A stretch of DNA of 55,840 bases from Bdellovibrionia bacterium (lineage in GTDB: Bacteria; Bdellovibrionota; UBA1018), in the NCBI GenBank assembly GCA_045805065.1, contig JBJMMA010000201.1, forward strand, positions 1-55,840. Direction: 5' to 3'. Each line of letters starts with the position of its first letter. The first letter of the stretch is position 1. The notes beneath the pieces are model-generated. The model was not told the DNA's origin. It was given only the letters and a program-made list of their open reading frames with translations, and ran no database searches. Shown here one piece after another: positions 26,190-41,822 of this stretch. A program made the position numbers and the translations under genes.

Positions 26190-27647
26190 ATGTCATCTGA
26201 AAAAGATGTAACCGGTAAAATTGTCATTATTGATGACGACGGTGAAATGCGCGCGCTTTTAAGCGACTTCCTGAGCAAGCAAGGTTACGAAGTCGCTACT
26301 TTCAAGCTGGCGACTGAAGCATTGACGGCACTCTCCCCAAACGGTGAATTCGCCCGAGGCACCGAAAAAGGTGACCTGGATCTGATCCTTTCCGACATTA
26401 AAATGCCTGAAATGGACGGCTTAGAGTTTACTGCAAAGGTCCGAAACCTGAGACCCGAGCTCCCCGTGATTCTGATGACAGCCTTTGGGAGTATCGAGAC
26501 GGCCATCGAGGCAATGAAGCGCGGCGCGTATCATTATATTGTTAAGCCATTTAAATTGGCCGAAGTGGACGTCAGTGTGCGGCGCGCTCTGGAGCATCGC
26601 GCCCTTCAACGCGAAAATGTCGTCTTAAGGCAAGAGCTCAAGCAGAACTGGGCCTTTGGCGGTGTGATTGGAAAAAGCTCTGGAATGAAGGCCGTATTTG
26701 ACCTCGTTCAAAGGGTTTCTCAGGCGACGGCCAATGTTCTTATTACGGGGGAGAGCGGAACCGGTAAGGAAATGGTTGCGCGAGCGATTCATGAAAATGG
26801 CGTGCGCGCCAAAAAGCCTTTCATCGCGATCAACTGCACAGCAATTCCGGATACTCTTCTTGAAAGCGAATTGTTTGGTCATGCAAAGGGCTCGTTCACG
26901 GGAGCGATTCAGCGGAAGCGCGGTCTTTTCGAGGAAGCCAGCGGAGGAACTCTGTTTCTGGACGAAATCGGCGACCTGGACGTTACGCTTCAAGCAAAGC
27001 TTCTGCGCGTGATTCAGGAAAAGAAGGTTCGAGCCGTCGGCGAGAACATTGCGCGTGATGTGGATGTGCGCCTTCTTGCCGCCACTCATAAGGATCTCAA
27101 GTCAGCCATGAAGGATGGGCGCTTCAGAGAAGATCTTTACTATCGCCTGAGCGTGATCCCGATCGTCATTCCGCCGCTTCGTGATCGCAAGGAAGACATT
27201 CCGCTTTTGGCCGACTACTTCCTCAAGAAGTATTCAGCCGCGAATGGAGCAAAGATTGCCGGTTTTACGAAAAAAGCCGCCGCAAAGCTCATGAGCTTGC
27301 GTTGGGAAGGCAACGTCCGTGAGCTTGAGAATGTGATTGAGCGCGCAGTTGTCCTGAGCCCCGGCCCTTACATTGATGATACCGATATCCCGTCAGGAGT
27401 GGAGCAATCGGCAGAAGAGTTCTTTGCCGGAGCCTCGACTGACTTTCCGACCGTCGAGCAATTGGAAAAGCGTTATATTCAATTGATTCTTGAGAAAACG
27501 GGTGGACGCAAAGACAAGGCCGCGCAAATTCTCGGGATGAACCGCAGAACGCTCTATCGTAAGGAGCGCGAGTACGGGCTTCTACCGGCGGATGCTCCGC
27601 CAGAAGAAGCCGTGTCCTCAGTCTCTGAGAACCCAGACGAGACTTGA
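26190..27647 (+). CDS. Sigma54-dependent NtrC/AtoC-family response regulator
   Basis: Receiver (IIDDD, SDIKMP, KP), GESGTGKE, GSFTGA, LFLDEIGD, FREDLYYRL, Fis-type HTH (AAQILGMNRRTLYRK). Confidence 0.95.
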   Translation: MSSEKDVTGKIVIIDDDGEMRALLSDFLSKQGYEVATFKLATEALTALSPNGEFARGTEKGDLDLILSDIKMPEMDGLEFTAKVRNLRPELPVILMTAFGSIETAIEAMKRGAYHYIVKPFKLAEVDVSVRRALEHRALQRENVVLRQELKQNWAFGGVIGKSSGMKAVFDLVQRVSQATANVLITGESGTGKEMVARAIHENGVRAKKPFIAINCTAIPDTLLESELFGHAKGSFTGAIQRKRGLFEEASGGTLFLDEIGDLDVTLQAKLLRVIQEKKVRAVGENIARDVDVRLLAATHKDLKSAMKDGRFREDLYYRLSVIPIVIPPLRDRKEDIPLLADYFLKKYSAANGAKIAGFTKKAAAKLMSLRWEGNVRELENVIERAVVLSPGPYIDDTDIPSGVEQSAEEFFAGASTDFPTVEQLEKRYIQLILEKTGGRKDKAAQILGMNRRTLYRKEREYGLLPADAPPEEAVSSVSENPDET

Positions 27648-28547
27648 AGCCTCTCGGACGATTTGCCTGCTGATGCTGCCCAGTAGCGCGGATTTGGCCG
27701 CGCCACTGCGTGCTTCAAGTGCAATCAACGAGACGTTTTCTTTAGCGGCGATCTCTCGAATCGATCCCGTAACAGAGGGCGCCGAGCTATCTAGAGAGGT
27801 CTGGACCTTCACCCCGGCACTTTCCGCGATTTTCCGGTATTCAGTCAGGAGCTGAGAACCTTTGTTACGAGCTGCGCCTAGAAATTCGTCGAGCGGCACC
27901 CAACCGCCTCCCATGAGATAAAGCCCGCTTTGAAAGACTGGATCGATCGGGCGCTCAATCGTGTGATAGATGATGAGCTCCGCATCCCATGCGAGAGCGA
28001 TATCAATCACGCGTTTCAGTGTGTCTTTTGAGCTTTTGGAGAAATCAGTTGGGAACAAAATCTTTTCGATGGGTTTTGGTTTCCAATGAGGATGGATGAC
28101 AAGCACAGGAAGCTTGGACTGAAGAAGCAGCGTCTCCGCAAAAGAGCCAACCAGGAAGCGATCCAGCCCAGACCGGCCATGCGTTCCAGTCACAATGAGA
28201 TCAGCGCCTTCATCGTGGGCATGCTGAAGGAGAGTGTCAATTACCGCTCTCAAAGAGCGGCTCTTTTGACGGATGATTTTAGGTTTTTCGACCAGGGTTC
28301 CTGCGTCTTTTAACGCATAGTCCAGGGCTTTTTTGAGCTCAGGTTCATACTGGCGATGCCAAGGATCAGAAAGCTGAATCGGGAGATTGAAGCTCTCGGG
28401 GCTAAAGACATAGACCGGCTCAATGTGAGCGTCATATCTTTCTGACAAAAGTCTCAAAAAGCCGATGATCGCTTCACGAGTCTCCTTGTGACTCTCGAAA
28501 GGATCGATTGCCCAGATTATTCTCCGCGCCTTTTTTTCATTAGCCAT
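27618..28547 (-). CDS. Tandem universal stress protein
   Basis: Two USP domains (DLIVTGTHGRSG..LVGS.AE; ILFPTDFS..S; LLGSISRQIV). Confidence 0.92.
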   Translation of the reverse strand: MANEKKARRIIWAIDPFESHKETREAIIGFLRLLSERYDAHIEPVYVFSPESFNLPIQLSDPWHRQYEPELKKALDYALKDAGTLVEKPKIIRQKSRSLRAVIDTLLQHAHDEGADLIVTGTHGRSGLDRFLVGSFAETLLLQSKLPVLVIHPHWKPKPIEKILFPTDFSKSSKDTLKRVIDIALAWDAELIIYHTIERPIDPVFQSGLYLMGGGWVPLDEFLGAARNKGSQLLTEYRKIAESAGVKVQTSLDSSAPSVTGSIREIAAKENVSLIALEARSGAAKSALLGSISRQIVREASSLVWVLRD

Positions 28548-28571
28548 TTGAGTTCCTCAACTGGCTAAAAA

Positions 28572-28587
28572 AGCAGGGAGCGTGCCA
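28572..28587 (-). promoter_or_regulatory. Putative sigma54 promoter of the USP gene
   Basis: Minus strand TGGCACGCTCCCTGCT, about 25 bp before the ATG. Confidence 0.75.
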
Positions 28588-28633
28588 GCCCTACTGCGCT
28601 TATAGGTGGGCTGGCGCAGATCGAACAAGAAGT

Positions 28634-28672
28634 TGAGACAGATGCGATTCCACGTTGGGTCAAAAAGTCCCA
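28634..28672. promoter_or_regulatory. Putative enhancer sites (TGRGACA-N3-TGTCYCA family)
   Basis: TGAGACA half-site at 28634-28640 and TGGGTCA-AAA-AGTCCCA at 28656-28672. Confidence 0.6.
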
Positions 28673-28693
28673 AACGCGGTTTGCTTCAAGAGG

Positions 28694-29800
28694 CTATGCT
28701 TTTGGAACAATCAGATGAAAGATCGTGCCTTTGCCTTCTTGGCTTTCAACGGACATTGAGCCGCCCCAGGATTGAATCATCCAATAAGACGTCGCAAGTC
28801 CCAGGCCTGTTCCCACACCAATGTCTTTGGTCGTAAAGAACGGTCTGAAGAGCTTGGCTTGATTTTCCTTGGAAATGCCACTGCCCGTGTCTTCAACGCT
28901 AATGGACCACTGCGCTCCGAGATCCAGAGCGCTGATCCTAATCATGTGGCCATCCGCTCTGCCTTTTTTCTTTGCTTCGACAATCGCATGGACGGAGTTC
29001 ACTACGAGATTCAGTAGAATCTGATGGAGCTTGTCTGAAGTTGCGCGAATACGCGGAGAAACGGCTAACTGTCCGATCGTGTTTTCGATCCGGATGTCGT
29101 GTTTCTTGAGTTCATGGTTCATCAGCTCAAGAATGTCTTGAACGGCAGGTGCAACCTCGATTGCAGAGACCTGAGCGGTTTCGTCACCGCGGGCAAGATT
29201 GAGAAGCGAGCGGATCAAACCAGAAACGCGATCAATCTGAGAGACGATGATGCCGACGTTCTTTTTTACTTCCGCGTTGTCTTCGACCTGCATGGACAGA
29301 TATTCTGCGCGACCGCGGATCACGCCAAGTGGGGTTCCAATCTCATGAGCCAGGCTGGATGCCAGCAGGCCAATCGAGGCCATGCGATCCTGAGTGATGG
29401 CCTGGGTCTGCATTTGGGCGCGATAAGTGGCATAACGGATCGCGCGCTCAAGAAGATGCGTGCTGAGCTCGCCTTTCAAAAGATAATCCGCGGCGCCCAC
29501 GCGCATGGCTTCCTGGTCAACTTCGTGATCGCCATAACCCGTAAGCAAAATGACCGGAGTGCGATCGCCACGCGCGATCAGTTCCTTGAGAAGGTCCAGG
29601 CCTGTCACAGCGCCTAAGCGATAATCGATAATATAGACGTCAAAAGTCTGCTGACTGATTTTCTGGAAGGCCTCGTCGGGTGAGGAGGCTGCTGAAAAGT
29701 CAAAACGTGAAGTGCGGACTTCTGCCAGGTAATCCCTAATGACGAAGATATCGTCATCATCATCGTCAACCAGCAGGACTCGGAAGGAAGATTTAGGCAT
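28694..29800 (-). CDS. Receiver-histidine kinase hybrid (NtrB-like kinase core)
   Basis: Receiver (VDDDDDD, IDYRL) plus LAHEIGTPL, NLVVNS, DTGSG, FFTTK, GTGLGL. Confidence 0.92.
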   Translation of the reverse strand: MPKSSFRVLLVDDDDDDIFVIRDYLAEVRTSRFDFSAASSPDEAFQKISQQTFDVYIIDYRLGAVTGLDLLKELIARGDRTPVILLTGYGDHEVDQEAMRVGAADYLLKGELSTHLLERAIRYATYRAQMQTQAITQDRMASIGLLASSLAHEIGTPLGVIRGRAEYLSMQVEDNAEVKKNVGIIVSQIDRVSGLIRSLLNLARGDETAQVSAIEVAPAVQDILELMNHELKKHDIRIENTIGQLAVSPRIRATSDKLHQILLNLVVNSVHAIVEAKKKGRADGHMIRISALDLGAQWSISVEDTGSGISKENQAKLFRPFFTTKDIGVGTGLGLATSYWMIQSWGGSMSVESQEGKGTIFHLIVPKA

Positions 29801-29803
29801 GGC

Positions 29804-30271
29804 TCAGCACCGTTTGGGAGTGCGTGGAAGCTCCACAATCTCAAACCAATATTTTCCAAGGTCTCTCAGAATGTCCACCAGGGATCCGAAAGTGACTGGT
29901 TTTGTGACAAACGAATTCACGCCGAGATTATAAGTGCGAAAGATATCTTCTTCAGCCTTGGATGTCGTCAGTACGACCACGGGAATGTCTTTTAAGGCAG
30001 GATTGCTTTTGATGTCCCTGAGGGCCTCGCGACCATCCTTCTTTGGCATGTTGAGATCTAGAAGAATAAGGCCCGGGCGGGGAGCCGGAGTGTTCTCATA
30101 TTTTCCCCGCTTCATCAGATAGTCCATCAGGTCTTCGCCGTCCTCGACGAAGTGAAGGTCGTTTGCGAGGCGGTTTTCTTCCAGCGCGTCCTTGATCATC
30201 AGCCGATCGTCAGCATCATCATCAGCCACCAGGAGAGTGATACACTTTGTATTTTGCTCATTCTTAGTCAT
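29804..30271 (-). CDS. Single-domain response regulator (Rcp1-like)
   Basis: ADDDADD, PGLILLDLNMPKKDG, IPVVVLTTS, YNLGVNSFVTKP, YW. Confidence 0.9.
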   Translation of the reverse strand: MTKNEQNTKCITLLVADDDADDRLMIKDALEENRLANDLHFVEDGEDLMDYLMKRGKYENTPAPRPGLILLDLNMPKKDGREALRDIKSNPALKDIPVVVLTTSKAEEDIFRTYNLGVNSFVTKPVTFGSLVDILRDLGKYWFEIVELPRTPKRC

Positions 30272-30284
30272 AGGAATTCTTCAG

Positions 30285-31412
30285 CTACCTTTGTCTGACA
30301 GGAAGATTGATAATGAAAGTGGTTCCATGACCAGGCGTGCTTTTGGCAGTCACTTGCCCATGATGGCGCTCGACAATTCGCCTGACAATCGCAAGGCCAA
30401 CGCCTGTGCCCTCGTACTGGCTTTTTCCATGCAACCGCTGGAAGATCGTGAATATTCGATCGAGGTATTTCTCCTCAAATCCGATTCCGTTGTCTCGAAT
30501 TCGAATCTCACAGTTTCCAGCCTTCACTTCTGATTCGATATGAATCTCAGGCGGAGTTTCCGGTTTATGGAATTTCAACGCGTTGCTCAAGATGTTCTGC
30601 AAAAGCTGCCGCATCTGTGAGGGATCACTATCAATCGTGTGCAATGTGCTTGATATGATTTTTCCGTGCGTGCTCTCGATTCGAACCTCAAGGTCAGAGA
30701 TGACTTCCCGAAGGACTTGATTGAGGTCGGTTGAAACGAAGGGCTGCGCCTTGGTCGTGATCCGGGAGTAGGAGAGCAGATCATCAATCAGGGTCTGCAT
30801 TCTCTTGGCCGATCCCAGCATGCGGTCGAGATAATCTTTTCCATCATCGCCCAAAAGATCTCGGTACTTGGTTTTCAATCGATCCGAGAAGGCCTGAATT
30901 TTTCGGAGAGGCTCTTGAAGGTCGTGCGCTGCAACGGATGCAAAATCCTGAAGCTCCCGGTTACTTGCTTCAAGCTTGTCAGCGTAATGAATCAGCTGTT
31001 CCTCCGCCTGCTTTCGCGAAGTGATCTCATAGCGGATGGACACATACTCGTAAGGTGTTCCCTTCTCGTTCAGGAAAGGAACGATGGTGGTATAGACCCA
31101 ATAAATTGAGCCGTCTTTTGCGCGATTTCGAATCTCGCCTTCCCAAATCTGGCCGCTCGAAATGGTCTTCCAAAGATCGACGAAAAACTGAGGCGGATGA
31201 AAGCCCGAATTAATGATTCGGTGGTTCTGTCCTAAAAGTTCTTGCCGAGGATACTTGGAGATCTCGCAGAACTTATCATTCACATGGATGATGCGACCGC
31301 CTGGATCAGTGATCGCCACAATGGCTGAGCGGTCGAGAGCATTGCGAATATTGGTTAATTCTCGCTCGGTCGCTTGTAGCTGCTCGGACGGTGTTCTCTG
31401 GTCCACGGTCAT
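30285..31412 (-). CDS. Soluble PAS histidine kinase (NifL/Aer-like PAS)
   Basis: VNDKFCEIS.Y...ELLGQNHRII...LW.TI..G.IW.GEIRNRAKDGS.YW; AHDLQEPLRK, DNGIG, GTGVGL; no TM segment. Confidence 0.92.
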   Translation of the reverse strand: MTVDQRTPSEQLQATERELTNIRNALDRSAIVAITDPGGRIIHVNDKFCEISKYPRQELLGQNHRIINSGFHPPQFFVDLWKTISSGQIWEGEIRNRAKDGSIYWVYTTIVPFLNEKGTPYEYVSIRYEITSRKQAEEQLIHYADKLEASNRELQDFASVAAHDLQEPLRKIQAFSDRLKTKYRDLLGDDGKDYLDRMLGSAKRMQTLIDDLLSYSRITTKAQPFVSTDLNQVLREVISDLEVRIESTHGKIISSTLHTIDSDPSQMRQLLQNILSNALKFHKPETPPEIHIESEVKAGNCEIRIRDNGIGFEEKYLDRIFTIFQRLHGKSQYEGTGVGLAIVRRIVERHHGQVTAKSTPGHGTTFIINLPVRQR

Positions 31413-31421
31413 GCCCAGAAT

Positions 31422-31754
31422 TTAGCAAACCCCGGGCGTGTTTGGAACAACTCCTAGGTGTTTTTCGGCCAATGAGCGCAGAAGAAAGTCGTGAGGATGC
31501 TCCAGATTCTCACAGCCGACGACTTTTCGAGCAATCTGCGGTGCTGTTTCTCGAACATAAGCATAGAAGCGGTACTTTGAGACACCGGGGCCCACAATCA
31601 GAATGCGTGTTGCTTCCTCAAGCCGATTAGCCAAAGCTTCTAAAAAATGACCGTGGCCAGGCATCGTGTTCTGAAGGCTATCTTCTGTTGGCGGATTTCG
31701 CGAGAACCCATAGAGCCTTGCATGACTCCGATCAATCCAAACTAAAGTGGGCAT
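31422..31754 (-). CDS. Small eRF1-domain-2-like (baeRF/host-attachment-like) protein
   Basis: VWID..HAR, ILIVGPG..K..F, VVG.E..EHP motifs; GGAG SD fits ATG 31754. Confidence 0.65.
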   Translation of the reverse strand: MPTLVWIDRSHARLYGFSRNPPTEDSLQNTMPGHGHFLEALANRLEEATRILIVGPGVSKYRFYAYVRETAPQIARKVVGCENLEHPHDFLLRSLAEKHLGVVPNTPGVC

Positions 31755-31781
31755 GTTCTTCATCTCCAAGCGCGCTCATAA

Positions 31782-31797
31782 AGCAACGGCTAAGCCA
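31782..31797 (-). promoter_or_regulatory. Putative sigma54 promoter of the baeRF/kinase operon
   Basis: Minus strand TGGCTTAGCCGTTGCT; nearly identical to 40925-40940. Confidence 0.72.
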
Positions 31798-31862
31798 AGC
31801 GGGCTCCGGCCAAATTCCCTAAGGATTGTATGGGGCTTAAGAATTTCCTGTGAATTCCCACT

Positions 31863-31910
31863 CGGGACAGTTTTTCTCCCTGCTCCCGGCGAATGGGACT
31901 TTCTGTCTCA
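31863..31910. promoter_or_regulatory. Tandem enhancer sites between divergent sigma54 promoters
   Basis: CGGGACA-GTT-TTTCTCC (31863-31879) and TGGGACT-TTC-TGTCTCA (31894-31910), 31 bp apart. Confidence 0.62.
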
Positions 31911-31949
31911 TGGTTAAAACCGGACCCGAGTCATTTCAATAGGTTGCGC

Positions 31950-31965
31950 AGGCACAACCACTGCA
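31950..31965 (+). promoter_or_regulatory. Putative sigma54 promoter of the cbb3 operon
   Basis: AGGCACAACCACTGCA with correct GG/GC spacing. Confidence 0.65.
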
Positions 31966-31981
31966 CAAACGCACCCCCGAT

Positions 31982-34465
31982 ATGCTTCAAAAGATCAACA
32001 TCTTCGAGTCTGTGGCTGGATCAGTCGTGAGCACTGGACCCGCCAAGTGTGTCCACTGCGGGCTGAGGATTCCGGCCGGCGTGAGCGGAATGTTCTGCTG
32101 CCGTGGCTGCGAGATGGTTTTCACTTTGATCCATGAGCGCGGGCTCGATGATTACTACCGGATCCGAGATCAGGGAGCGAGCATTCGAAGCAGCCGCCCC
32201 GCTGCAGTTTCTAGCGAGAGCCTAAATTTTTACTCACATCTCGACGATCCCGAATTTCTGAATCTTTATTGCCAGCCTGAGGCGGGCACGGGACTTCGGA
32301 CCATGCAGTTTTATCTCGAAGGCGTTCACTGCACCGCTTGTGTCTGGCTCACGGAGAAGGTGAGTGAGTGGGTTGCTGGCGTTCGCTCGATTCGGCTGGA
32401 TCTCGGTCATTCGCTTGCGACAGTAAAGCTTGATAGCAACGGATCTTTCTCTGAAGTCGCACGCGAGTTCATGAAGCTCGGTTACCGCCCGCATCCTGTC
32501 AAACAAGATGAGGCTCAAGCACTGGAAGCTCGCGAGAATCATCGCGCGCTGATTCGCATGGCCATCGCAGGCGCTGGAGCGGGAAACATCATGCTTCTGG
32601 CGATCTCAGTCTATGCGGGCGCCACTGGAGTTCTTCAGCACTACTTTGAGTGGGTAAGCTTTCTGATCTGCCTGCCGGTTGCAACCTACAGTGCCTGGCC
32701 ATTCTATCGCAGCGCTTTGGGCGCGCTCAGATCACGTCAGCTCTCCATCGATATTCCGATCGCGCTGGGACTCAGTGTTGCGTTTGTCGCAAGCTTCATC
32801 AGCATCCTGATCCACTCCAAGCATGTTTACTTTGATACGGTTTCCTCACTGGTATTTTTGCTTCTGGCAAGCCGCTATGTTTTGAGAAAGACGCAGCAGG
32901 AAGCACTTCATGCAACGCGCTTGATTCATTTTCTCACGCCTTCCATGGCACGCCGGAAGCGCGTTCAGGGCAGTGGCTTTGAGGAAGTCAGCGTTGACTC
33001 GCTTCAAGCAGGTGATCATGTCCTTGTTCTAGCTGGAGAATGCATTCCTACGGATGGGATTGTATGCTCCGGAATCAGCGCCTTGAATCTATCGCTTCTG
33101 ACGGGTGAGTCTCGTCCTGAGCTCGTGCAGCCTGGCGTTCCTGTGTTTGCTGGAACGCTGAACACCCAAGCCCCGCTTGAAATTGAAGTTCAAAGCTTTG
33201 GCAGCGCCACTCGCCTTGGCAAGATCCTTTCTTCGATGGAAGAACACTTGTCTCGCAAAGCTCCTATCGTTGCCTTTACGGATCAGATCTCCAAGGCATT
33301 CGTCTTGATCTCGCTGGCACTCGTAGGCGTCGCCTTTTACGTCGGATTTACCATCAGTCCTGCTGAGGGCGTGAGCCGCGCACTGGCCATGGCGATCGTA
33401 GCGTGCCCTTGCGCTTTTGCTTTTGCAACGCCTCTGGCTCTAAGCATTGCCATGGGCCGCTTTGCCCGATACGGCGTTCTGATCAAGGGCGCAGACGTCA
33501 TTGAAAAGCTTGCGCATGTGAATCAAGTGGTTCTGGATAAAACCGGCACCCTGACGACCGGTCAGTTTGAAGTCAAAAAATGGCTCATTGATGCGGATCA
33601 AGTTGGAATTGAGGAAGCGGTCTATGCTCTTGAGACACGCTCAACGCATCCCATTGCTCGCGCTTTGGTTTCATTCCTGAAGCCTCGCCTGAATGGTCGC
33701 GAGATTCCTGGCGTTGAAGAGTTTTCTGAGACCATCGGGCGTGGACTCTCGGGTCGCATCCAAAGTCATCCTTATGAAGTCCAAGCGCTGAACGAAGAGT
33801 TGCTCAATGGATCACCCAATCTATCAAACGACGCCGGTACCCAGATCGCCATTTTAAAAGATGGCAATCGAGTTGGACGCGTAACGTTAGGTGACAGTTT
33901 GAGAACTGATACTGAGAGCGCTGTTGAAAAACTTCGCGCGTTGAAGCTTGGAGTGAAGATCCTCTCAGGCGACGGCAAGTCCGCAGTGATGAGTGTCGCC
34001 AATCGACTTGGCGTCGGATCTCGAGACGCGTACTTCAAGGCATCGCCTGAATACAAGAGCGAGGTCATCGGTAAAATGCCACGTGCCCTGATGGTGGGTG
34101 ATGGCGCAAATGATTCCATCGCATTGGCTTCGGCTTATGTGGGTGTGGCGGTTCATAGCGGAATGGAAATCAGCATGCGCGCAGCTGATGTTTATCAGCG
34201 CCAGCCAGGTGTCATGCCGGTGGTTCATTTGATCCGTGCCTCGCGCGAGACGCTGAAAGTGATTTACAGAAACTTCGCCTTCTCGCTCGTCTATAACTTC
34301 ATTGGAACCTATGCCGCAATTACGGGACATGTGAGCCCGCTTTTTGCCGCGATCCTGATGCCGATCAGTGCTTTGACCGTGTTTGGATCTTCCATTGTCG
34401 GCACCCGCAAACTTCGTAAAATTTACTCTCAGCTTTCGGATGAGAGTCAGGAGGCAGCAGTATGA
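31982..34465 (+). CDS. ccoI: Cu-transporting P1B ATPase for cbb3 assembly (CcoI/FixI)
   Basis: C.HCG, CC.GC, HCTAC, TGES, CPC, DKTGT, GDGAND; heads the cco operon. Confidence 0.92.
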   Translation: MLQKINIFESVAGSVVSTGPAKCVHCGLRIPAGVSGMFCCRGCEMVFTLIHERGLDDYYRIRDQGASIRSSRPAAVSSESLNFYSHLDDPEFLNLYCQPEAGTGLRTMQFYLEGVHCTACVWLTEKVSEWVAGVRSIRLDLGHSLATVKLDSNGSFSEVAREFMKLGYRPHPVKQDEAQALEARENHRALIRMAIAGAGAGNIMLLAISVYAGATGVLQHYFEWVSFLICLPVATYSAWPFYRSALGALRSRQLSIDIPIALGLSVAFVASFISILIHSKHVYFDTVSSLVFLLLASRYVLRKTQQEALHATRLIHFLTPSMARRKRVQGSGFEEVSVDSLQAGDHVLVLAGECIPTDGIVCSGISALNLSLLTGESRPELVQPGVPVFAGTLNTQAPLEIEVQSFGSATRLGKILSSMEEHLSRKAPIVAFTDQISKAFVLISLALVGVAFYVGFTISPAEGVSRALAMAIVACPCAFAFATPLALSIAMGRFARYGVLIKGADVIEKLAHVNQVVLDKTGTLTTGQFEVKKWLIDADQVGIEEAVYALETRSTHPIARALVSFLKPRLNGREIPGVEEFSETIGRGLSGRIQSHPYEVQALNEELLNGSPNLSNDAGTQIAILKDGNRVGRVTLGDSLRTDTESAVEKLRALKLGVKILSGDGKSAVMSVANRLGVGSRDAYFKASPEYKSEVIGKMPRALMVGDGANDSIALASAYVGVAVHSGMEISMRAADVYQRQPGVMPVVHLIRASRETLKVIYRNFAFSLVYNFIGTYAAITGHVSPLFAAILMPISALTVFGSSIVGTRKLRKIYSQLSDESQEAAV

Positions 34466-34635
34466 GCGCAATTTATTTGATGCTTCCGATCGCGCTTCTT
34501 TTGGGCCTGAGCTTTGTTGTGGCGTTCATTCGCGCCGCATCCCAGGGCCAATATGATGATCTCGATACTCCTGCTCATCGAATCTTACTGGAAGATAAAA
34601 TTTCACAAGTGACTCTTAAGAAAGGCAACCTATGA
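34462..34635 (+). CDS. ccoS: cbb3 oxidase assembly protein CcoS (57 aa, not in the ORF track)
   Basis: MSAIYLMLPIALLLGLSFVVAFIRAASQGQYDDLDTPAHRILLED...; GQYDD motif; ATGA overlaps at both ends. Confidence 0.92.
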   Translation: MSAIYLMLPIALLLGLSFVVAFIRAASQGQYDDLDTPAHRILLEDKISQVTLKKGNL

Positions 34636-36830
34636 TCACCCCCACGAGCAGTAATGAAAGCAACTCTGCAGTCGTTGAACTGAATGCAGATTCAACGAAG
34701 GCACGTGAAACCGAGCAGTTCAGATATGACGACGATATCGTCAAGAAATTCATTCATGCCACGATGGTCTGGGGATTTGTGGCCCTTCTGCTTGGCGTTT
34801 TCATCGCTTCGCAACTAGCGAACTGGCGACTGAACTTCGGTCTTCCCTGGCTGACCTTCGGAAGACTCCGCCCGCTTCACACGAACGCGGCGATTTTCGC
34901 TTTCGCGGGGAACGCAGTTTTTGCAGGCATTTATTATTCGACACAGCGTCTTCTCAAGACGCGCATGTACTCGGACACCTTGAGCAAGATCCACTTCTGG
35001 GGCTGGCAGCTGATCATCGTTTCGGCTGCGTTGACTCTGCCTTTTGGGATCACGGTCGGTAAGGAGTACGCCGAGCTTGAGTGGCCGATCTCTCTTGCGA
35101 TCAATGTGATCTGGGTGCTCTTTGGCTACAACTACTTCAAGACGATTCAGATTCGTCGTGAGCGTCATATTTATGTGGCGATCTGGTTCTATATCGCAAC
35201 GATTCTGACGACCGCGCTTTTGCACGTCGTGAACACGATTCAGATTCCTGTCTCGATGTGGAAGAGCTATCCGATCTACTCAGGCGTTCAAGACGCGTTG
35301 GTTCAATGGTGGTACGGCCATAACGCCGTTGCCTTCGTTCTGACGACGCCGTTTCTGGGCCTGATGTACTACTTCTTGCCAAAGGCGGCGAACCGCCCGG
35401 TCTACAGTTACCGCCTTTCGATCGTGCACTTCTGGTCTCTGGTGTTCATTTACATCTGGGCCGGTCCGCACCATCTTCTTTACACGGCCTTGCCGAACTG
35501 GGCGCAGACGCTGGGGATGGTGTTCAGCGTGATGCTGCTGGCTCCAAGCTGGGGCGGCATGATCAATGGTCTTCTCACGCTTCGTGGAGCCTGGAGTCGA
35601 GTTCGTACGGAACCGGTTCTCAAGTTCTTTGTCGCAAGCTTGACGTTCTACGGAATGGCAACGTTTGAGGGCCCGCTTCTTTCCATCAAATCCGTGAGCG
35701 CTCTTGGCCACTACACGGATTGGATCATTGGTCACGTCCACGGAGGAACGCTGGGTTGGAACGGCTTCATGACCTTTGCGATGGTTTACTGGCTGGTTCC
35801 AAAGCTTTGGAACACGAAGCTCTACAGCGAGAAGCTTGCGAACGTCCATTTCTGGACGGGTTTCTTGGGAACGGTCACTTACATGATCTCCATGTGGGTT
35901 GCCGGCATCACGCAAGGTCTCATGTGGCGTGCGATGGATGGAGCTGGGAAGCTCGTTTATCCAGACTTCATTGAAACGGTCACTCGCATCGTGCCGCTCT
36001 ACTATGTGCGCGCGATTGGGGGCGGCCTCTACCTCGTGGGCTTCGTCGTCATGTTCTACAACATCTACAAGACGATCTCGCTGGCACCGAAAGCGGTCAA
36101 AGACGAAGTCGTTTCGGCTCCAAGGCTTAAGGCACCCGCTCCAGGCGAGCTTGGAACAAAGCCTCACCGGGTACTCGAAGGTCTGCCTGGACTTTTCGCT
36201 GTGCTGAGCTTTGTAGCAGTAGCTGTAGGTACGTTCATTGAGCTTGCTCCTGCGGTTCTCTCTGCCGACTACGTGGAAGTGAACCCAGCGGTCAAGCCAT
36301 ATACGCCACTCCAGCTTCAAGGCCGCGATATCTATGTGCGAGAAGGATGCTATCTGTGCCACTCGCAGATGATTCGTCCGCTGGTCTCGGAAACGCTTCG
36401 TTATGGCGCGTACTCCAGGCCTGAGGAGTCGGTCTATGATCGCCCATTCCAATGGGGATCCAAGCGTACCGGCCCGGATCTGGCCCGTGTTGGCGGCAAG
36501 TACCCAGACCTCTGGCACTTCCGTCACATGATGGATCCACGGGACGTCGTTCCTGGTTCGATCATGCCGATGTACCCATGGTTGTTCAAAGACAAGATCG
36601 ACTACGGAACCATGACCAAGAAGCTTCAGGTCATGAAGTCCCTGGGAGTTCCATACTCTCTGGACGAAGTGAACAACGCAGCCGATCTCGCTCGCGCTGA
36701 AGCCAAGCAGATCTCTGAAGGACTGAAAACCCAGGGTGTTCCTGCCGGATATGAGGATCGTGAGATCGTCGCTCTGATCTCGTATCTGCAGCGCTTGGGA
36801 ACTGACTTCAAGAAAGGACTGATCAAATGA
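34632..36830 (+). CDS. ccoNO: Fused cbb3 cytochrome c oxidase subunits I+II (CcoNO)
   Basis: GRLRPLHTN, WWYGHN, GPHH, GHVH; C-terminal EGCYLCHSQMIRP and WGSKRTGPDLAR. Confidence 0.97.
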   Translation: MITPTSSNESNSAVVELNADSTKARETEQFRYDDDIVKKFIHATMVWGFVALLLGVFIASQLANWRLNFGLPWLTFGRLRPLHTNAAIFAFAGNAVFAGIYYSTQRLLKTRMYSDTLSKIHFWGWQLIIVSAALTLPFGITVGKEYAELEWPISLAINVIWVLFGYNYFKTIQIRRERHIYVAIWFYIATILTTALLHVVNTIQIPVSMWKSYPIYSGVQDALVQWWYGHNAVAFVLTTPFLGLMYYFLPKAANRPVYSYRLSIVHFWSLVFIYIWAGPHHLLYTALPNWAQTLGMVFSVMLLAPSWGGMINGLLTLRGAWSRVRTEPVLKFFVASLTFYGMATFEGPLLSIKSVSALGHYTDWIIGHVHGGTLGWNGFMTFAMVYWLVPKLWNTKLYSEKLANVHFWTGFLGTVTYMISMWVAGITQGLMWRAMDGAGKLVYPDFIETVTRIVPLYYVRAIGGGLYLVGFVVMFYNIYKTISLAPKAVKDEVVSAPRLKAPAPGELGTKPHRVLEGLPGLFAVLSFVAVAVGTFIELAPAVLSADYVEVNPAVKPYTPLQLQGRDIYVREGCYLCHSQMIRPLVSETLRYGAYSRPEESVYDRPFQWGSKRTGPDLARVGGKYPDLWHFRHMMDPRDVVPGSIMPMYPWLFKDKIDYGTMTKKLQVMKSLGVPYSLDEVNNAADLARAEAKQISEGLKTQGVPAGYEDREIVALISYLQRLGTDFKKGLIK

Positions 36831-37012
36831 ATGTCATTCGAGAAGTGTTGTCGCATTTTCATCTCCCGCTGCTCTCTTGCTTTGGGCTCCTGCTTTTCAT
36901 GGGCGTCTTTACCGGTGCCCTGATGTGGGTATTCCGCAAGGGAAGCGGGGAATTTTACGCAAAGCTAAGCGATCTGCCCTTGGATCTGATCCCACAGGAC
37001 GGAGAGAGATAA
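36827..37012 (+). CDS. ccoQ: cbb3 oxidase subunit CcoQ
   Basis: 61 aa, one TM helix then W.FRK...LPLD; position in operon. Confidence 0.85.
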   Translation: MNVIREVLSHFHLPLLSCFGLLLFMGVFTGALMWVFRKGSGEFYAKLSDLPLDLIPQDGER

Positions 37013-37014
37013 CT

Positions 37015-37590
37015 ATGAGCAACATGAACAACGAAGATAACAAAAAACTCACCGACCACGAGTATGATGGGATTCGTGAGTTCGATTACCAGCTTCCTCG
37101 CTGGTGGCTGAACATGTTCTACATCACGATCCTGTTTGCGGTCGGCTACTTTGCTTACTACCAGATGCTGGCCGGGCCATCGATTCAGGAGGAGTATCAG
37201 GCTGAGCAAAATCAGCTTGAGGTGATGATGGCAACTGCTGCTGCCAAGCGAGCAAATATCTCCGAGGCAGATCTGGTCGCGATGGTAAAAGATCCGATCA
37301 AAGTGAAATCAGGAAAGGATCTCTTTCAGGTCCGCTGCGTGGCCTGTCACGGGGCTTCTGGACAAGGTCTCATCGGCCCGAACCTCACGGATGAGTTCTG
37401 GCTGCATGGTGGAAAGCTTGCCGAAGTTTCCAATACCATCACCAACGGCGTACCCGACAAGGGAATGCCTCCGTGGGGTCCGGTCATGTCCGCTGATCAG
37501 ATCCACAATGTCGTGGCTTATATCCGCTCGATTCGTGGAACCAATCCAGCTGGAGCGAAGGCTCCACAAGGAGAGCAGTACAAAGAATGA
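37015..37590 (+). CDS. ccoP: cbb3 oxidase subunit III, short monoheme CcoP
   Basis: DHEYDGIRE...LPRWW, single CVACH, GPNLTD, GMPPW; ATG 37015. Confidence 0.92.
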   Translation: MSNMNNEDNKKLTDHEYDGIREFDYQLPRWWLNMFYITILFAVGYFAYYQMLAGPSIQEEYQAEQNQLEVMMATAAAKRANISEADLVAMVKDPIKVKSGKDLFQVRCVACHGASGQGLIGPNLTDEFWLHGGKLAEVSNTITNGVPDKGMPPWGPVMSADQIHNVVAYIRSIRGTNPAGAKAPQGEQYKE

Positions 37591-39005
37591 CTTCGAGAGA
37601 GCTTCCGCAAGACCGCTTAGCTACTGCTGACGAGGAGGGAAAGCGCGTATGGCTTTATCCCTCCGACGTGAAAGGTAGGTACCGCACCCGCAGAAAATGG
37701 GTGAGTGCTGCGCTGATCAACTTCTTTTTGTTTCTCCCATGGGTCCGCATCGGTGGTCACCAAGCGGTCTTGCTCGATATTCCTCAACGACGTTTTGCTA
37801 TTCTTGGCATCACGTTCTGGGCACATGATGCTCCGATGCTGCTTTTTGTCGCAGGCGGAGCGGTCCTGACACTCGCCTTTGTTACGGCGGTGTGGGGAAG
37901 AGTGTGGTGCGGTTGGGCGTGTCCACAAACTGTTTTCATCGTCTCGGTGTTTCGAAGGATTGAGCGCTGGATTGAAGGTGATGCGGTTGAGCGCCGGAGG
38001 CGCGATGAGGGCCCGGCTACACCCGAAAGAGCGATCAAGAGGACCATCAAGTGGAGCTTGTTCACTCTCGTATCGCTCATCATCAGCCATAGCTTTCTGG
38101 CGTATTTCGTGGGAACGCAAAAGCTTGCTCAAATGATTACAAGCTCTCCGGTAGAAAATCCGGGAAGCTTTCTGATCATGGCATTTGTCACGGGGCTGAT
38201 CCTTTTTGATTTTGGCTGGTTCCGTGAGCAGTTCTGCACGATTGTTTGTCCTTACGGCAGATTTCAGTCTGTCTTGATGGATGATCAATCCACTGCTGTT
38301 GTCTATGATGCGCGTAGAGGCGAACCTCGTCGGGGAATTGCAACGCCTGATCAACCTGCAGGTGATTGCGTGAACTGCTATAAATGCGTTCAGGTCTGTC
38401 CGACCGGGATTGATATCCGCCGTGGAGCGCAGCAATTGGAATGCATCGCTTGCACCGCCTGCATGGATGCCTGCGATGACGTAATGGCCAGACTTAAAAA
38501 GCCGCAAGGCTTGATCCGGTATGGATCCGTGGCAGAGATCCAGGGCAAGCCAACCGGGCGTGGCGCACGACCTTGGGCTTATGGCGCTCTGATTGTCGCG
38601 TGCATCACGGGACTTACGTTGACGGTTCGGGACAGAACGGCGATTACTGTGAGCCTGATCCGGGCTGCGGAAGCTCCCTATCAGGTCATTGCGGGCGAGA
38701 ATGGCGCTCCAGAGGTGATCAACCATTATAAGCTTGAGCTTCGTAACCAATCCTTTGATCGTCAGGCGATCGAGATTCTCGTTCCCAAAGAATATCAAGA
38801 TAAGGGCGTCAAAATCGTTATTTCCAATCACGCCGATGGTATTGAGGGGGGCGCCTCTGAGCGTGCGGATCTCTTTATCCGATTCCCAAAGACGCTTTTG
38901 AATCTGGGAAAAGGTGAGATGGATCTCGATTTCTCCGCAAAGAGCGAAAACAAACAAGAATCCGTTTTGAAAAAGGAGGTGCGCCTTGTCGGGCCTTTTA
39001 TCTAA
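37587..39005 (+). CDS. ccoG: cbb3 accessory 4Fe-4S protein CcoG
   Basis: GRVWCGWACPQT, REQFC..VCPYGRFQS, DCVNC..CVQVCPTGIDIR, ECIAC.AC.DAC. Confidence 0.95.
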   Translation: MTSRELPQDRLATADEEGKRVWLYPSDVKGRYRTRRKWVSAALINFFLFLPWVRIGGHQAVLLDIPQRRFAILGITFWAHDAPMLLFVAGGAVLTLAFVTAVWGRVWCGWACPQTVFIVSVFRRIERWIEGDAVERRRRDEGPATPERAIKRTIKWSLFTLVSLIISHSFLAYFVGTQKLAQMITSSPVENPGSFLIMAFVTGLILFDFGWFREQFCTIVCPYGRFQSVLMDDQSTAVVYDARRGEPRRGIATPDQPAGDCVNCYKCVQVCPTGIDIRRGAQQLECIACTACMDACDDVMARLKKPQGLIRYGSVAEIQGKPTGRGARPWAYGALIVACITGLTLTVRDRTAITVSLIRAAEAPYQVIAGENGAPEVINHYKLELRNQSFDRQAIEILVPKEYQDKGVKIVISNHADGIEGGASERADLFIRFPKTLLNLGKGEMDLDFSAKSENKQESVLKKEVRLVGPFI

Positions 39006-39696
39006 TCCGGCATTTGTGCCTCTGGCCGTTGTCAGCGCAAGTCTTCTGGGAAGTGGACACTGTGTGGCGATGTGTGGCGGCTTGATTGCCTCGTCGACTC
39101 GTAATCGAAGCGATGTCTTTAAGTATCATCTGGGACGTCTGGCAGGTTACACCGCACTAGGCGCCGTCGCCGGCTTGCTCGGTGAGCGGATGTTTCGTGA
39201 GACCACGATCGGAGTCCTTCCGTGGATTGCGACCGGAATGCTCGCTGGAGGCCTGATCCTGTCGGGTGTCAGGATCTGGACAGGAAAGGGAATGCATCTT
39301 CAGATTCTTCCGGCGGCACTCATGCAAAAGCTTTATTCAAAAAGCCGTGGATCCGCGGCGCGCGTGGGGATTCTATCGGCGTTCTTGCCTTGTGGCTGGC
39401 TCCATACGTTTGTCATAGCCTCATTGGCAACGCGTAGCGCGCTCTACGGCGCGCTCTTTTTGTTCTTTTTCTGGCTGGGAACTCTTCCAGCACTGACTGC
39501 GGCTCCGTTGCTTTTGCAGCGAGTGCTCAAGCCCATGAGTCAAAAGCTTCCACGTCTATCGGCAAGCCTTTTGATCGTAGCCGGTGTGCTCACTTTGGGC
39601 GCCAAGCTCAGACCCTTGATCGATGCCCAGACTCAAAGCGGCAACGGCGAACAGCAGACCATGACCTGCCATTCGCCGTCGTATCATGAACATTGA
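38986..39696 (+). CDS. DsbD_2/TauE-SafE-like membrane protein (cbb3-associated)
   Basis: GSGHCVAMCG, YHLGRL.GY, FLPCG, FWLGTLP; TTG start after AAGGAGGT. Confidence 0.88.
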   Translation: MSGLLSNPAFVPLAVVSASLLGSGHCVAMCGGLIASSTRNRSDVFKYHLGRLAGYTALGAVAGLLGERMFRETTIGVLPWIATGMLAGGLILSGVRIWTGKGMHLQILPAALMQKLYSKSRGSAARVGILSAFLPCGWLHTFVIASLATRSALYGALFLFFFWLGTLPALTAAPLLLQRVLKPMSQKLPRLSASLLIVAGVLTLGAKLRPLIDAQTQSGNGEQQTMTCHSPSYHEH

Positions 39697-39715
39697 GCAC
39701 TAGTTGTCAGATCAC

Positions 39716-40897
39716 TTAGTTCAGCTTCTGCTTTTGAGCAGGAGCTGCTGGAGGCGTTGGCAAGGCCAGTGCTTCCAGGTCATCGAGCTTTTGCTCGATG
39801 TCTCCTGGGATGTCCGTTCCTGCGCTTCCCGTAAAGCCATCGTAAATCGCTTGTTCGTAGCGTTTGTAGCAAGTCTGAGCGAGATTGGAGTGCGGCGAGC
39901 TTCGGATGCAGGATTCGAAGTAAATTTCATGGAGCTCACCAAGTTGATAGGTTTTCAGGACATCATAGCAGAGGCCTGCCATGAGATAGCCTTCGTTGGT
40001 GTGCTTGGCTTCCTTACCTAACTGAAGCAGACGATGAACCGCTGCTGAGGCTCTCAGATAGAGAATGTCCGCGCCGCGATCAGCCGGAAATTTCTGAGCC
40101 TGCTGAGCTTGAGCCAGCAATCGGACAGCTTCCGCATAGGTACCTTCTTCGCTATCAATTTTTTTACCGGCTTCCTTCTGCCATTCCTCAATTGAGCTCT
40201 TCCAGGTCAGTGCATCCTGCTTCATGAAGAAAGGCACGGATTGCGTTGCCAGTACTTGATTCACGATCTTCAAGGCGAGTGCCGGATCTTGTTTCATCCT
40301 GACTGCGATACCCAGGCTGTTGCGAACAGATTCCTGCCAGTCGGCAAAGCGCTGATTTGCAGCGCCTGGCTCAGAGATGACCTGTCCAAACTCATCGATC
40401 GCGCGATCAAATTGGCGGGTTGCCGCAAAAAAGCGACCTTTCTCAATGGAGCGCAGGTCCTTCAAAGTAGGATTGAGCGGGAGATCCGTAAAGCTGGGTC
40501 CGCTTTGAGTGCGCGTGTGACAAGCGATGCAATAGCCGGGGAGGCTTTGGAGAAGCTCGCGCGCATAGGCTCTCTGAGGTGCCTTTCCGGTTTTCAGGAG
40601 CCGGTAAGCGCGTGCGGATTCATCAGCGAACATGTTTCCAAGTATCTGGATCGATGGATCATGGTCAGGCGCATCGCTTTTGGGCTTGGTCAGATCATGC
40701 GCCAGTTGGGATAGTTTCTTCGCGTTCTGTTCAATTCTCGTCTTGTTGGCTGGCGAATTGAAACGTTTCTCACTGCTGACATCAGTGATCAGATCTGCCA
40801 GGGTTTTATAAAGACTCTGCATTCGTGCAGACCAGGTGAGACTCTCGGCATGCGAGAGCGCGGGTATGAGGAGTAATAGACAGATCAATTTCTTCAT
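39716..40897 (-). CDS. Exported monoheme cytochrome c fused to TPR-like repeats
   Basis: Signal peptide, helical domain ending in CIACH, then helical repeats. Confidence 0.75.
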   Translation of the reverse strand: MKKLICLLLLIPALSHAESLTWSARMQSLYKTLADLITDVSSEKRFNSPANKTRIEQNAKKLSQLAHDLTKPKSDAPDHDPSIQILGNMFADESARAYRLLKTGKAPQRAYARELLQSLPGYCIACHTRTQSGPSFTDLPLNPTLKDLRSIEKGRFFAATRQFDRAIDEFGQVISEPGAANQRFADWQESVRNSLGIAVRMKQDPALALKIVNQVLATQSVPFFMKQDALTWKSSIEEWQKEAGKKIDSEEGTYAEAVRLLAQAQQAQKFPADRGADILYLRASAAVHRLLQLGKEAKHTNEGYLMAGLCYDVLKTYQLGELHEIYFESCIRSSPHSNLAQTCYKRYEQAIYDGFTGSAGTDIPGDIEQKLDDLEALALPTPPAAPAQKQKLN

Positions 40898-40924
40898 GAA
40901 AGGGCCTTTCTAGGCAGGAGATAA

Positions 40925-40940
40925 AGCAACGGCCGAGCCA
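40925..40940 (-). promoter_or_regulatory. Putative sigma54 promoter of the heme-TPR gene
   Basis: Minus strand TGGCTCGGCCGTTGCT. Confidence 0.72.
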
Positions 40941-40987
40941 GCTGAAATGGGCTTAAAGTGAGGCTAAGACCTGAAATTTCAAAGCCG

Positions 40988-41004
40988 TGAGACAGAATGT
41001 CTCA
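40988..41004. promoter_or_regulatory. Perfect enhancer-like palindrome
   Basis: TGAGACA-GAA-TGTCTCA, 48-64 bp upstream of the sigma54 box; could also act as a terminator hairpin for the XRE gene. Confidence 0.62.
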
Positions 41005-41015
41005 AAGGCTTTCAG

Positions 41016-41639
41016 TTAAGTCCCGCTCGCAGGATTAGGCGAGAAGGCTGGAGCGACAACACCCAAAACCGCAGACGCTTCGTGAGATGCTGAGCGCGCC
41101 AGCCGTTTCCAGCTGATTTGAGCCAGATAATCGGACTGATCTTGTGCAAGAAGGTGATACTGGGCAGATGCCTGGGGGAGACTTTTGGCCGTGTTGGAAA
41201 GGACTTGAGTTTGAATGTTCTTCTTCTCAGACTCATTAGAAAAGAGCTCATTGAGCACGGTCCGGCCCGCTCCAAAAAGCTGAATGAAGCTCGCATTCCG
41301 GAAAATCAGCTCACCCTTTAAGTTGGCGACGAATACTGGCGTAGGCATGTGATTGAGAATTTCAGACTCACAGGAAATGCCGTGCTCCGAAAGCCGACTA
41401 TTGAGTGCTTCCTCGTTCAGAAGGTAGCAGGCTCGAGTTTCCAGTACCCCGCTGATCGTCTTGAAGAACATCAGCGGGGGATTGACTTCGCCGGCCTCGA
41501 TTTTCTGAAAATGACGGCGTCCGAGTCCGCAGCGTGATGCACATTCAGACTGAGTGAGGTTCTTGCTCTTACGTGCATTGCGTACGATTTGACCTAAAGA
41601 TTCGCCGGGTTTCTTCTGGTTGTTTTCACGTGACGTCAC
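41016..41639 (-). CDS. XRE-family HTH regulator with a C-terminal PAS-like domain
   Basis: GQIVRNARKSKNLTQSECA...IEAGEVNP; ILNHMPTPVFVANLKGELIFRN. Confidence 0.82.
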   Translation of the reverse strand: MTSRENNQKKPGESLGQIVRNARKSKNLTQSECASRCGLGRRHFQKIEAGEVNPPLMFFKTISGVLETRACYLLNEEALNSRLSEHGISCESEILNHMPTPVFVANLKGELIFRNASFIQLFGAGRTVLNELFSNESEKKNIQTQVLSNTAKSLPQASAQYHLLAQDQSDYLAQISWKRLARSASHEASAVLGVVAPAFSPNPASGT

Positions 41640-41743
41640 GGCTTTGATCCTAATTCCACTTCACTTGAATGAAAAGAGTAATGTGGATGCGCCCTATAAG
41701 TGCGCATTTTCAATCTCTTCATCACAACATCACAACTTTCGTA

Positions 41744-41770
41744 TTTAGCGTACAGCCATGGCGTCGATTA
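41744..41770 (+). promoter_or_regulatory. Possible sigma28 promoter of the chemoreceptor
   Basis: TTTAG-N14-GTCGATTA versus consensus TAAAG-N14-GCCGATAA. Confidence 0.4.
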
Positions 41771-41822
41771 TATTAATATACAACCGATATGTAGTTGTAC
41801 TTGGAAATATGAGGACACACCA

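Follow-up and report, generated by a model that had tools for sequence, protein, structure and literature searches.

We analyzed a 55,840-nucleotide stretch of DNA, positions 1 to 55,840 of contig JBJMMA010000201.1 in the assembly GCA_045805065.1 of a Bdellovibrionia bacterium; this whole stretch is referred to below as the window. Between positions 26,190 and 41,004 it carries the gene of an NtrC-type sigma-54 activator, an operon with signaling kinases, an operon for a cbb3 oxidase, a gene of a universal stress protein (USP) and a gene of an exported protein of 393 amino acids (aa) with one CxxCH motif, and all of these except the activator gene are preceded by sigma-54 promoter boxes (-24/-12 elements) and by related palindromes. 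We suggest that these elements probably belong to one small sigma-54 regulon for coping with low oxygen. The source is a soil draft genome of an uncultured lineage (4.22 Mb in 262 contigs, GC 51.7%, completeness 94%), in which the window is contig C201. The sequencing runs listed for this DNA are four soil-metagenome DNA runs of one study, and no RNA run is among them. The Pfam scan of the window proteins agrees with the gene calls of an initial annotation of this DNA. The genes are as follows.

26190..27647, + strand: NtrC-type sigma-54 activator, proposed to bind the palindromes (Pfam REC, AAA+, HTH_8)
27618..28547, - strand: tandem universal stress protein, predicted target (Pfam Usp 3.7e-36, two stretches)
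28694..29800, - strand: hybrid kinase with an N-terminal receiver (Pfam Response_reg at residues 8-119, HisKA, HATPase)
29804..30271, - strand: single-domain receiver protein of 155 aa, possible phospho-sink (Pfam Response_reg)
30285..31412, - strand: cytoplasmic PAS histidine kinase, proposed redox/oxygen sensor (Pfam PAS_9, HisKA, HATPase)
31422..31769, - strand: p115, small protein of 110-115 aa that opens the kinase operon; eRF1/pelota-like fold (no Pfam match)
31982..34465, + strand: copper P-type ATPase of the CcoI/FixI type, opening the cco operon (Pfam E1-E2_ATPase, ATPase-cat_bd, HMA)
34632..36830, + strand: fused CcoN-CcoO (Pfam COX1 6.2e-118, FixO 4.7e-89)
36877..37590, + strand: CcoP with one haem c domain (Pfam FixP_N, Cytochrome_CBB3; one CxxCH)
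37587..39005, + strand: CcoG/FixG (Pfam Fer4_18, FixG_C)
38986..39696, + strand: membrane protein of the DsbD_2 family, closing the cco operon (Pfam DsbD_2 3.8e-36)
39716..40897, - strand: exported 393-aa protein with one CxxCH, predicted target (no Pfam or NCBIfam family)

The genome encodes sigma-54 itself (rpoN on contig C21, Sigma54_DBD 1.4e-64), together with 17 full-length sigma-54 activators. The initial annotation had placed four -24/-12 boxes in front of these genes, and all four were found there. As read directly, each has its GG and GC dinucleotides 10 bp apart (TGGCAC-N5-TTGCW type), and the boxes end 13-28 nt 5' of the respective start codons.

28572-28587, - strand: sigma-54 box of the USP gene, TGGCACGCTCCCTGCT, 25 nt upstream of the USP start
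31782-31797, - strand: sigma-54 box of the p115-kinase operon, TGGCTTAGCCGTTGCT
31950-31965, + strand: sigma-54 box of the cco operon, AGGCACAACCACTGCA, weaker than the other three
40925-40940, - strand: sigma-54 box of the 393-aa gene, TGGCTCGGCCGTTGCT

Five enhancer palindromes of the form TGRGACA-N3-TGTCYCA had also been proposed. For scoring, we used a matrix built solely from the five strong sites of this genome, with a match threshold of at least 13 bits; in control flanks the 95th and 99th percentiles of this matrix were 5.1 and 9.1 bits. Three of the proposed sites (28656, 31894 and 40988) are strong and a fourth (31863) is weak but credible, whereas the fifth, at 28634, scores -3.6 bits and fits only in its left half, TGAGACA, so it is merely a half-site.

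28656-28672: enhancer palindrome of the USP promoter, TGGGTCAAAAAGTCCCA, strong, two mismatches to the proposed form
31863-31879: weak second enhancer site, CGGGACAGTTTTTCTCC, three mismatches, 9.0 bits and thus near the 99th percentile of the controls
31894-31910: strong enhancer palindrome common to the divergent cco and p115-kinase promoters, TGGGACTTTCTGTCTCA, one mismatch
40988-41004: perfect enhancer palindrome of the 393-aa gene, TGAGACAGAATGTCTCA, no mismatch

Measured from its centre, palindrome 28656 is about 102 bp upstream of the transcription start predicted for USP, and 40988 about 81 bp upstream of that predicted for the 393-aa gene. For palindrome 31894, the distance from its centre to the predicted transcription start is about 73 bp on the cco side and about 130 bp on the side of the p115 operon; this palindrome is 31 bp, centre to centre, from the weak site at 31863, which leaves a gap of 14 nt. 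Palindrome 40988 also sits 12 nt past the stop codon of an upstream HTH-PAS gene. The claim that no FNR box lies upstream of cco stands as well: the best match to TTGAT-N4-ATCAA in 31770-31981 has 4 of the 10 specified bases wrong.

Counts within the window are of little help. There are 12 palindromes at up to three mismatches, compared to 6.4 expected, and 2 of 100 shuffles reach 12; thus, the window-only count is weak evidence. A loose sigma-54 pattern is not enriched in the window (38 observed versus 32 expected). The association was also measured over the whole genome. The pattern TGRGAC-N5-GTCYCA, with at most one mismatch, has 36 matches in 4.22 Mb, seven of them intergenic by our crude ORF calls. 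Five of these seven are followed, 48-111 bp downstream, by a gene-facing sigma-54 candidate (225 candidates; distances of 30-250 bp were scanned); only 4.0% of intergenic positions are so placed by background (binomial P = 2e-6). This positional association indicates a regulon beyond chance, although a small one. Two of the five promoter-linked sites are on other contigs, and neither had been used to define the pattern; the regulon is thus not confined to the window, and its description as self-contained had to be given up. The two additional targets are the following.

Contig C209, site at 10584: precedes a gene of a 246-aa exported protein
Contig C252, site at 9587: precedes a gene of a 237-aa His-rich lipoprotein

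On C252 the dyad lies between the lipoprotein gene and a divergent hemA (C252 ~9400-9700; L151 2400-2720). A Fur-family gene is found just downstream of the lipoprotein gene, and a 516-aa open reading frame (ORF) follows hemA; inspection by eye of the C252 dyad revealed no sigma-54 box facing hemA. It should be noted that another palindrome, TGYGAC(A/T)TCCTGTCRCA, is very abundant in this genome, with about 40 exact copies among 134 matches (e.g., C10:11046, C51:8438, C134:1289 and window positions 43284-43300), and its non-palindromic centre occurs in both orientations. This TGYGAC-N5-GTCRCA repeat has Y/R where the regulon sites have R/Y, and its matrix score is low.

A further view is provided by relatives. 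We sampled 40 related genomes (41 including this one) and fetched the surroundings of 20 loci with orthologues of the activator. Within 3 kb of the 20 orthologue genes the matrix has 21 matches in 138 kb, and 14 of the 20 loci are matched. The corresponding controls gave one match in 43 kb at 10 paralogue loci (one locus of 10) and four matches in 169 kb farther out at the same loci. Across the whole 4.22 Mb genome there are 47 matches, and the enrichment around activator orthologues is about 14-fold. A second site that exceeds the 95th percentile of the controls accompanies nine of the 21 strong sites, at distances of 20-22 bp (five), 30-32 bp (three) and 47 bp (one). The scan of the genome and its relatives, which the initial annotation had proposed as a check, thus shows that the sites co-occur with sigma-54 boxes and cluster at activator orthologues, and the motif is conserved at orthologous promoters in other genera.

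The activator has the typical three-domain structure. Its receiver (Response_reg 1.2e-26, residues 11-126) contains LSDIKMP with Asp69; the AAA+ domain (Sigma54_activat 5.3e-71) has GSFTGA at residue 234, a one-residue variant of GAFTGA, Walker A GESGTGKE at residue 187 and DE at 258; and the C-terminal Fis-type helix-turn-helix is HTH_8 (1.3e-13, residues 421-462). The protein is below all NCBIfam equivalog cut-offs, including those of AtoC (492 bits, cut-off 714) and ZraR (418 bits, cut-off 760). Orthologues with 57-75% identity are present in 19 of the 40 relatives; the nearest named relatives are Bdellovibrionia and Oligoflexia metagenome genomes (74-75%), and in a scan of named genomes the best matches outside the phylum do not exceed 47% identity. 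As the genome has 17 activators, the proximity of the 26190 gene to the sites is weak evidence by itself. However, the motif follows the orthologues of this protein (14 of 20 loci) and not its paralogues (1 of 10), which makes it the likely binder; we consider it quite probable that the 26190 protein recognizes the dyad. The initial proposal that the resident NtrC-type regulator drives the regulon is retained in this respect, with the qualification that its own gene has no site here.

The gene order in relatives is consistent with this assignment; a motif and a gene neighbourhood that travel together in this way are typical of an operator and its regulator. A conserved run consists of a CBS-pair protein, the 393-aa protein, p115 and the activator, and a dyad with a sigma-54 box precedes the run at five loci (L112, L113, L114, L116 and L125). 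Homologues of p115 are found directly before the activator gene, USP genes often adjoin it, and so does a kinase of about 370 aa with the PAS-HisKA-HATPase build (eight of the nine neighbouring kinases scanned). In at least six loci a dyad stands immediately 5' of the start codon of the orthologue.

Several relatives have additional arrangements. Six of the 20 orthologue loci have a good sigma-54 box (TGGCAC-N5-CTGCT type) directed at the activator gene itself. The dyad is found there downstream of this box, in the 5' leader, at a distance of about 35-85 nt from the predicted transcription start and of 25-50 nt from the start codon that follows (L113 ~2877-2994, L114 2865-2990, L116 16961-17088, L125 16903-17060, L129 2193-2307 and L085 1131-1243). 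This arrangement is missing at the activator gene of the window. One relative (G017, locus L120) has four pairs of dyad and sigma-54 box within 20 kb (1863-2023, 6493-6596, 8483-8576 and 19034-19106), which stand in front of a USP-activator operon with a divergent CBS gene, of genes for a multicopper-oxidase-like protein and a pyridoxal-dependent decarboxylase, and of an uncharacterised gene; two of the four dyads have the variant right half TGSCGCA.

Among the predicted targets, the cbb3 operon encodes CcoN, CcoO and CcoP, together with the assembly proteins CcoG and CcoI. The genes ccoNO are present in 18 of the 41 genomes, 12 of which also have an orthologue of the activator. None of the six genomes with cco and without the activator orthologue has a site upstream of cco. 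Among the 12, a clear dyad and box precede cco in four (this genome, G002, G022 and G030; in G030 a CBS gene and a receiver gene lead the cco operon), the upstream regions are ambiguous in three (G018, G028 and G038), four have no site (G004, G014, G019 and G040), and in G037 the available stretch is too short. Thus, cco is a lineage-variable member of the regulon: the inclusion of the cbb3 operon in the initial annotation is borne out in this genome by a site and a box, and holds for only part of the lineage. The core of the regulon, as judged from these comparisons, is formed by the 393-aa protein, p115, USP and the kinase set. The 393-aa gene had been labelled heme-TPR. Its CxxCH is kept and aligned in 10 of 10 orthologues, so the haem part of the label is reasonable, while the TPR part has no Pfam support. 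Of 301 genomes sampled from the phylum, 167 were found to have a member of this family. A cluster of structural look-alikes (TM 0.80) is commonest in Myxococcota; no 393-aa homologue was found in the five genomes behind the best matches of the activator outside the phylum.

The input to the regulon is likely to be encoded by the minus-strand operon, which runs from 31769 down to 28694 in the order p115, PAS kinase, single receiver, hybrid kinase. The PAS domain of the kinase at 30285-31412 matches residues 1-120 of PDB entry 3ewk_A with 137 bits; further matches are the aerotaxis receptor (8dik) and NifL, the nitrogen fixation regulatory protein (2gj3). We take 3ewk to be the flavin-binding MmoS sensor, and the matched PAS domains of Aer and NifL presumably bind FAD. 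The kinases that adjoin the activator in relatives carry a related PAS domain; in this genome, their best match is the kinase core of the hybrid (46-50% identity), in which a receiver replaces PAS. The hybrid core is therefore the counterpart of the activator-adjacent kinase of relatives, and the likeliest flow of signal is from the PAS kinase to the hybrid and then to the activator, with the hybrid at 28694-29800 as the likely direct kinase of the activator. Both the direction of phosphotransfer and oxygen or redox state as the signal are inferred. For p115 there is a weak pelota match, and its structure matches (TM 0.83-0.84) Atlas clusters named "translational machinery protein".

The low-oxygen/redox theme of the initial annotation is plausible, given the Aer/NifL-like PAS domain in the kinase and a target set with cbb3 oxidase, USP and a c-type haem protein. 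The proposal that the regulon operates without FNR agrees with the data, as neither an FNR box nor a CRP/FNR-type protein was found: in the draft, HTH_Crp_2 (four matches, one above the cut-off) and cNMP_binding (nine matches) never coincide. With the draft 94% complete, such a protein is "not found" rather than "absent". Beyond the regulon, the window encodes a chemoreceptor (41700-43940, + strand) that combines a Tll0287-like sensor with a hemerythrin domain at its C-terminus, as well as an HTH_3-PAS protein (41016-41639, - strand); both are plausible oxygen/redox sensors and have no dyad or sigma-54 box of their own.

The sites, their association with sigma-54 boxes, their conservation beside activator orthologues and the domain builds of the proteins were seen directly. 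A mechanism that would connect them is as follows. The PAS kinase 30285-31412 would serve as the sensor and would signal through the receiver-kinase hybrid 28694-29800. The phosphorylated activator (26190-27647) would bind TGRGACA-N3-TGTCYCA, at times together with a weaker site two or three helical turns away, and would remodel the RNA polymerase-sigma-54 complex held at the -24/-12 boxes. Six promoters would thereby be driven from five enhancer regions in this genome: those of USP; of the p115/PAS-kinase/receiver/hybrid-kinase operon; of ccoI-ccoNO-ccoP-ccoG; of the exported 393-aa mono-haem protein; and of the two exported proteins of uncharacterised role on contigs C209 and C252. Since the kinase operon is itself a predicted target, the system would exert positive feedback on its own signaling.

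A number of observations weigh against this model and should be set out together. The cco box (AGGCAC-N5-CTGCA) is off consensus at both elements, with A for T at -26 and CTGCA at -12. The annotated ATG of ccoI follows the predicted cco transcription start by only about 7 nt (window 31965-32030), and such a leader has no space for a ribosome-binding site; translation may really begin at an in-frame GTG about 45 nt downstream, or the message may be nearly leaderless. A clear site and box were found before cco in no more than the four of 12 genomes mentioned above, and 6 of the 20 orthologue loci have no match at 13 bits or more. No palindrome precedes the activator gene in this genome. In a census of the exact pattern over the 41 genomes, 19 palindromic places were found, compared to 22 for a reversed control, so that it is not commoner than the control; being too strict and too rare for such a test, the exact pattern was dropped as a measure of the regulon. 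The His-rich lipoprotein target and the copper ATPase would equally fit a metal signal. Finally, the ORF calls and the sigma-54 scoring are our own and crude, and the compared relatives are not independent of one another.

Three alternative explanations were considered. If the palindromes were chance matches, terminators or repeat copies with no enhancer role, the weak enrichment in the window, the closeness of 40988 to the end of the upstream HTH-PAS gene (12 nt) and the abundance of the similar-looking TGYGAC-N5-GTCRCA repeat would be accounted for. The positional link to sigma-54 boxes (P = 2e-6) and the conservation of sites at orthologous promoters in other genera would not, and the repeat differs from the sites in having Y/R for R/Y and in its low matrix score; we regard this explanation as highly improbable. 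A different possibility is that the palindrome and the promoters are real, while the dyad is bound by another of the 17 full-length activators and the 26190 gene is merely nearby. The missing site before that gene and the two targets on other contigs would be expected in this case. Conversely, the motif tracks orthologues of 26190 and not paralogue loci, and a dyad stands immediately before the orthologue start codon at no fewer than six loci; a different binder is, in our opinion, improbable.

The regulator and the sites could also be as proposed, and the signal could be something other than oxygen, for instance a metal such as copper, energy starvation or some stage of a predatory life cycle. 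A copper P-type ATPase is the first cco gene, the C252 target is a His-rich lipoprotein beside a Fur-family gene, a site and box precede a multicopper-oxidase-like gene in G017, USP and CBS proteins are general energy-stress proteins, and the CorSR system of M. xanthus is described as a copper system of the sigma-54 type. However, both types of activator-linked kinases are cytoplasmic PAS kinases, whose nearest structures by sequence include the aerotaxis receptor and NifL, and not periplasmic metal sensors; in addition, the target set agrees with the hypoxia-induced NmpR regulon of M. xanthus, as published (PMC11841059). A signal of another kind thus appears unlikely. Taken together, the evidence favours a small regulon for low oxygen, resembling NmpRSTU and driven by the 26190 activator, as the probable interpretation.

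A broader reading may also be mentioned, in which sigma-54 would have replaced FNR in the control of cbb3 throughout Bdellovibrionota, independently of NmpR; the pair of PAS kinase and activator would be ancestral, and the enhancer in the leader, as seen in six relatives, would be a self-limiting switch, in which the bound activator both fires its own promoter and blocks its own transcript. As a whole, this combination is doubtful, and we offer it tentatively.

Several known systems can be compared to the one proposed here. AtoSC and ZraSR have the same domain build of the activator and are the nearest named NCBIfam models; the scores given above are far below the equivalog cut-offs, and the targets and sensors are unrelated. 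CorSR of M. xanthus was considered as the closest system and was rejected, because, according to its published description, it is a copper system and its "cbb3" gene encodes a lone CcoP-like protein.

The dormancy regulon of DosR (DevR) in Mycobacterium tuberculosis includes a CBS-domain protein. DosR is a NarL-type regulator that works with the sigma-70-type polymerase and does not control a cbb3 oxidase, whereas the regulator described here is a sigma-54 activator. The DosR regulon is described as a hypoxia regulon that is rich in USP proteins (PMC11841059).

In Proteobacteria, ccoNOQP/fixNOQP are controlled by FixLJ-FixK and FNR/Anr, which involve sigma-70 promoters, TTGAT-N4-ATCAA boxes and proteins of the CRP/FNR family. 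The output is common to both cases, i.e., a cbb3 oxidase induced when oxygen is scarce (predicted in the present case); in contrast, neither an FNR box nor a CRP/FNR protein was found here. Control of cbb3 by FixLJ-FixK/FNR is also cited in PMC11841059.

The closest system is NmpRSTU of M. xanthus. Bretl 2018 (PMC6211767) reported that the hybrid kinase NmpS, built with its receiver first, is under the control of the protoglobin kinase NmpU, that NmpT acts as a phospho-sink, and that NmpS phosphorylates the NtrC-like NmpR. According to McAllister 2025 (PMC11841059), NmpR binds paired GCGCA-N5-TGCGC dyads upstream of sigma-54 boxes, with a preferred spacing of 14-15 bp. The targets of this "oxygen utilization regulon" are described as mxan_4236 (a CBS protein heading the nmpR operon), nmpUTS, USP, genes of a P-type ATPase and cbb3 oxidase, hemN, hemerythrin and pilR; hypoxic, NmpR-dependent induction was reported for mxan_4236, and other targets were upregulated in a strain with constitutively active NmpR (PMC11841059). 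The wiring, which the initial annotation did not recognize as described, has therefore a published precedent in M. xanthus (PMC11841059; PMC6211767). Among the papers listed for sigma-54, cbb3 and oxygen control in Bdellovibrio, as judged from titles and abstract openings, the present system of Bdellovibrionota was not described.

The differences from the published NmpRSTU are as follows. The top sensor is an Aer/NifL-like PAS kinase here and a protoglobin kinase (NmpU) in M. xanthus. In place of the two-receiver NmpT, this genome has a lone single-domain receiver; moreover, the first receiver of NmpT resembles that of NmpS, whereas BLASTP aligns nothing between the single receiver and the receiver of the hybrid kinase, a point against the proposed NmpRSTU-like model. 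The operator is TGRGAC-N5-GTCYCA here and GCGCA-N5-TGCGC in M. xanthus, no pilR or hemN-hemerythrin targets were seen in this genome, and most relatives hold just the PAS kinase and the activator. The likeness to NmpR (MXAN_4240) is one of architecture, target classes and site geometry, as taken from published descriptions; a hint of common gene content, and the sole one, comes from the predicted structure of the 393-aa protein with its look-alike cluster in Myxococcota.

There are also common features. In M. xanthus, an NtrC-like regulator acts at sigma-54 promoters through a dyad that has a 5-bp centre and mostly comes as a pair of sites; the architecture and the site geometry seen here would fit such a mode of action, and the 14-nt gap between 31863 and 31894 equals the preferred spacing of 14-15 bp in M. 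xanthus. The P-type ATPase and cbb3 operon, USP and the system's own kinase operon are shared target classes (here by predicted sites only), and a CBS-headed operon with the regulator is found in both, on our side in relatives only. Both have a relay with a receiver-first hybrid kinase, and neither of them appears to use FNR. No new principle is involved; the novelty lies in the lineage, in the operator, in the PAS-type input and in a link to a phylum-wide CxxCH protein. An oxygen-utilization regulon that, in the papers cited, was shown experimentally only in M. xanthus would be extended to an uncultured soil lineage of Bdellovibrionota, together with a defined operator, another sensor domain and a list of predicted targets; a regulatory context would be given to the 393-aa family, which has no Pfam or NCBIfam match and is present in 167 of the 301 genomes; and the question of how bacteria apparently lacking FNR switch on a high-affinity oxidase would receive a testable answer.

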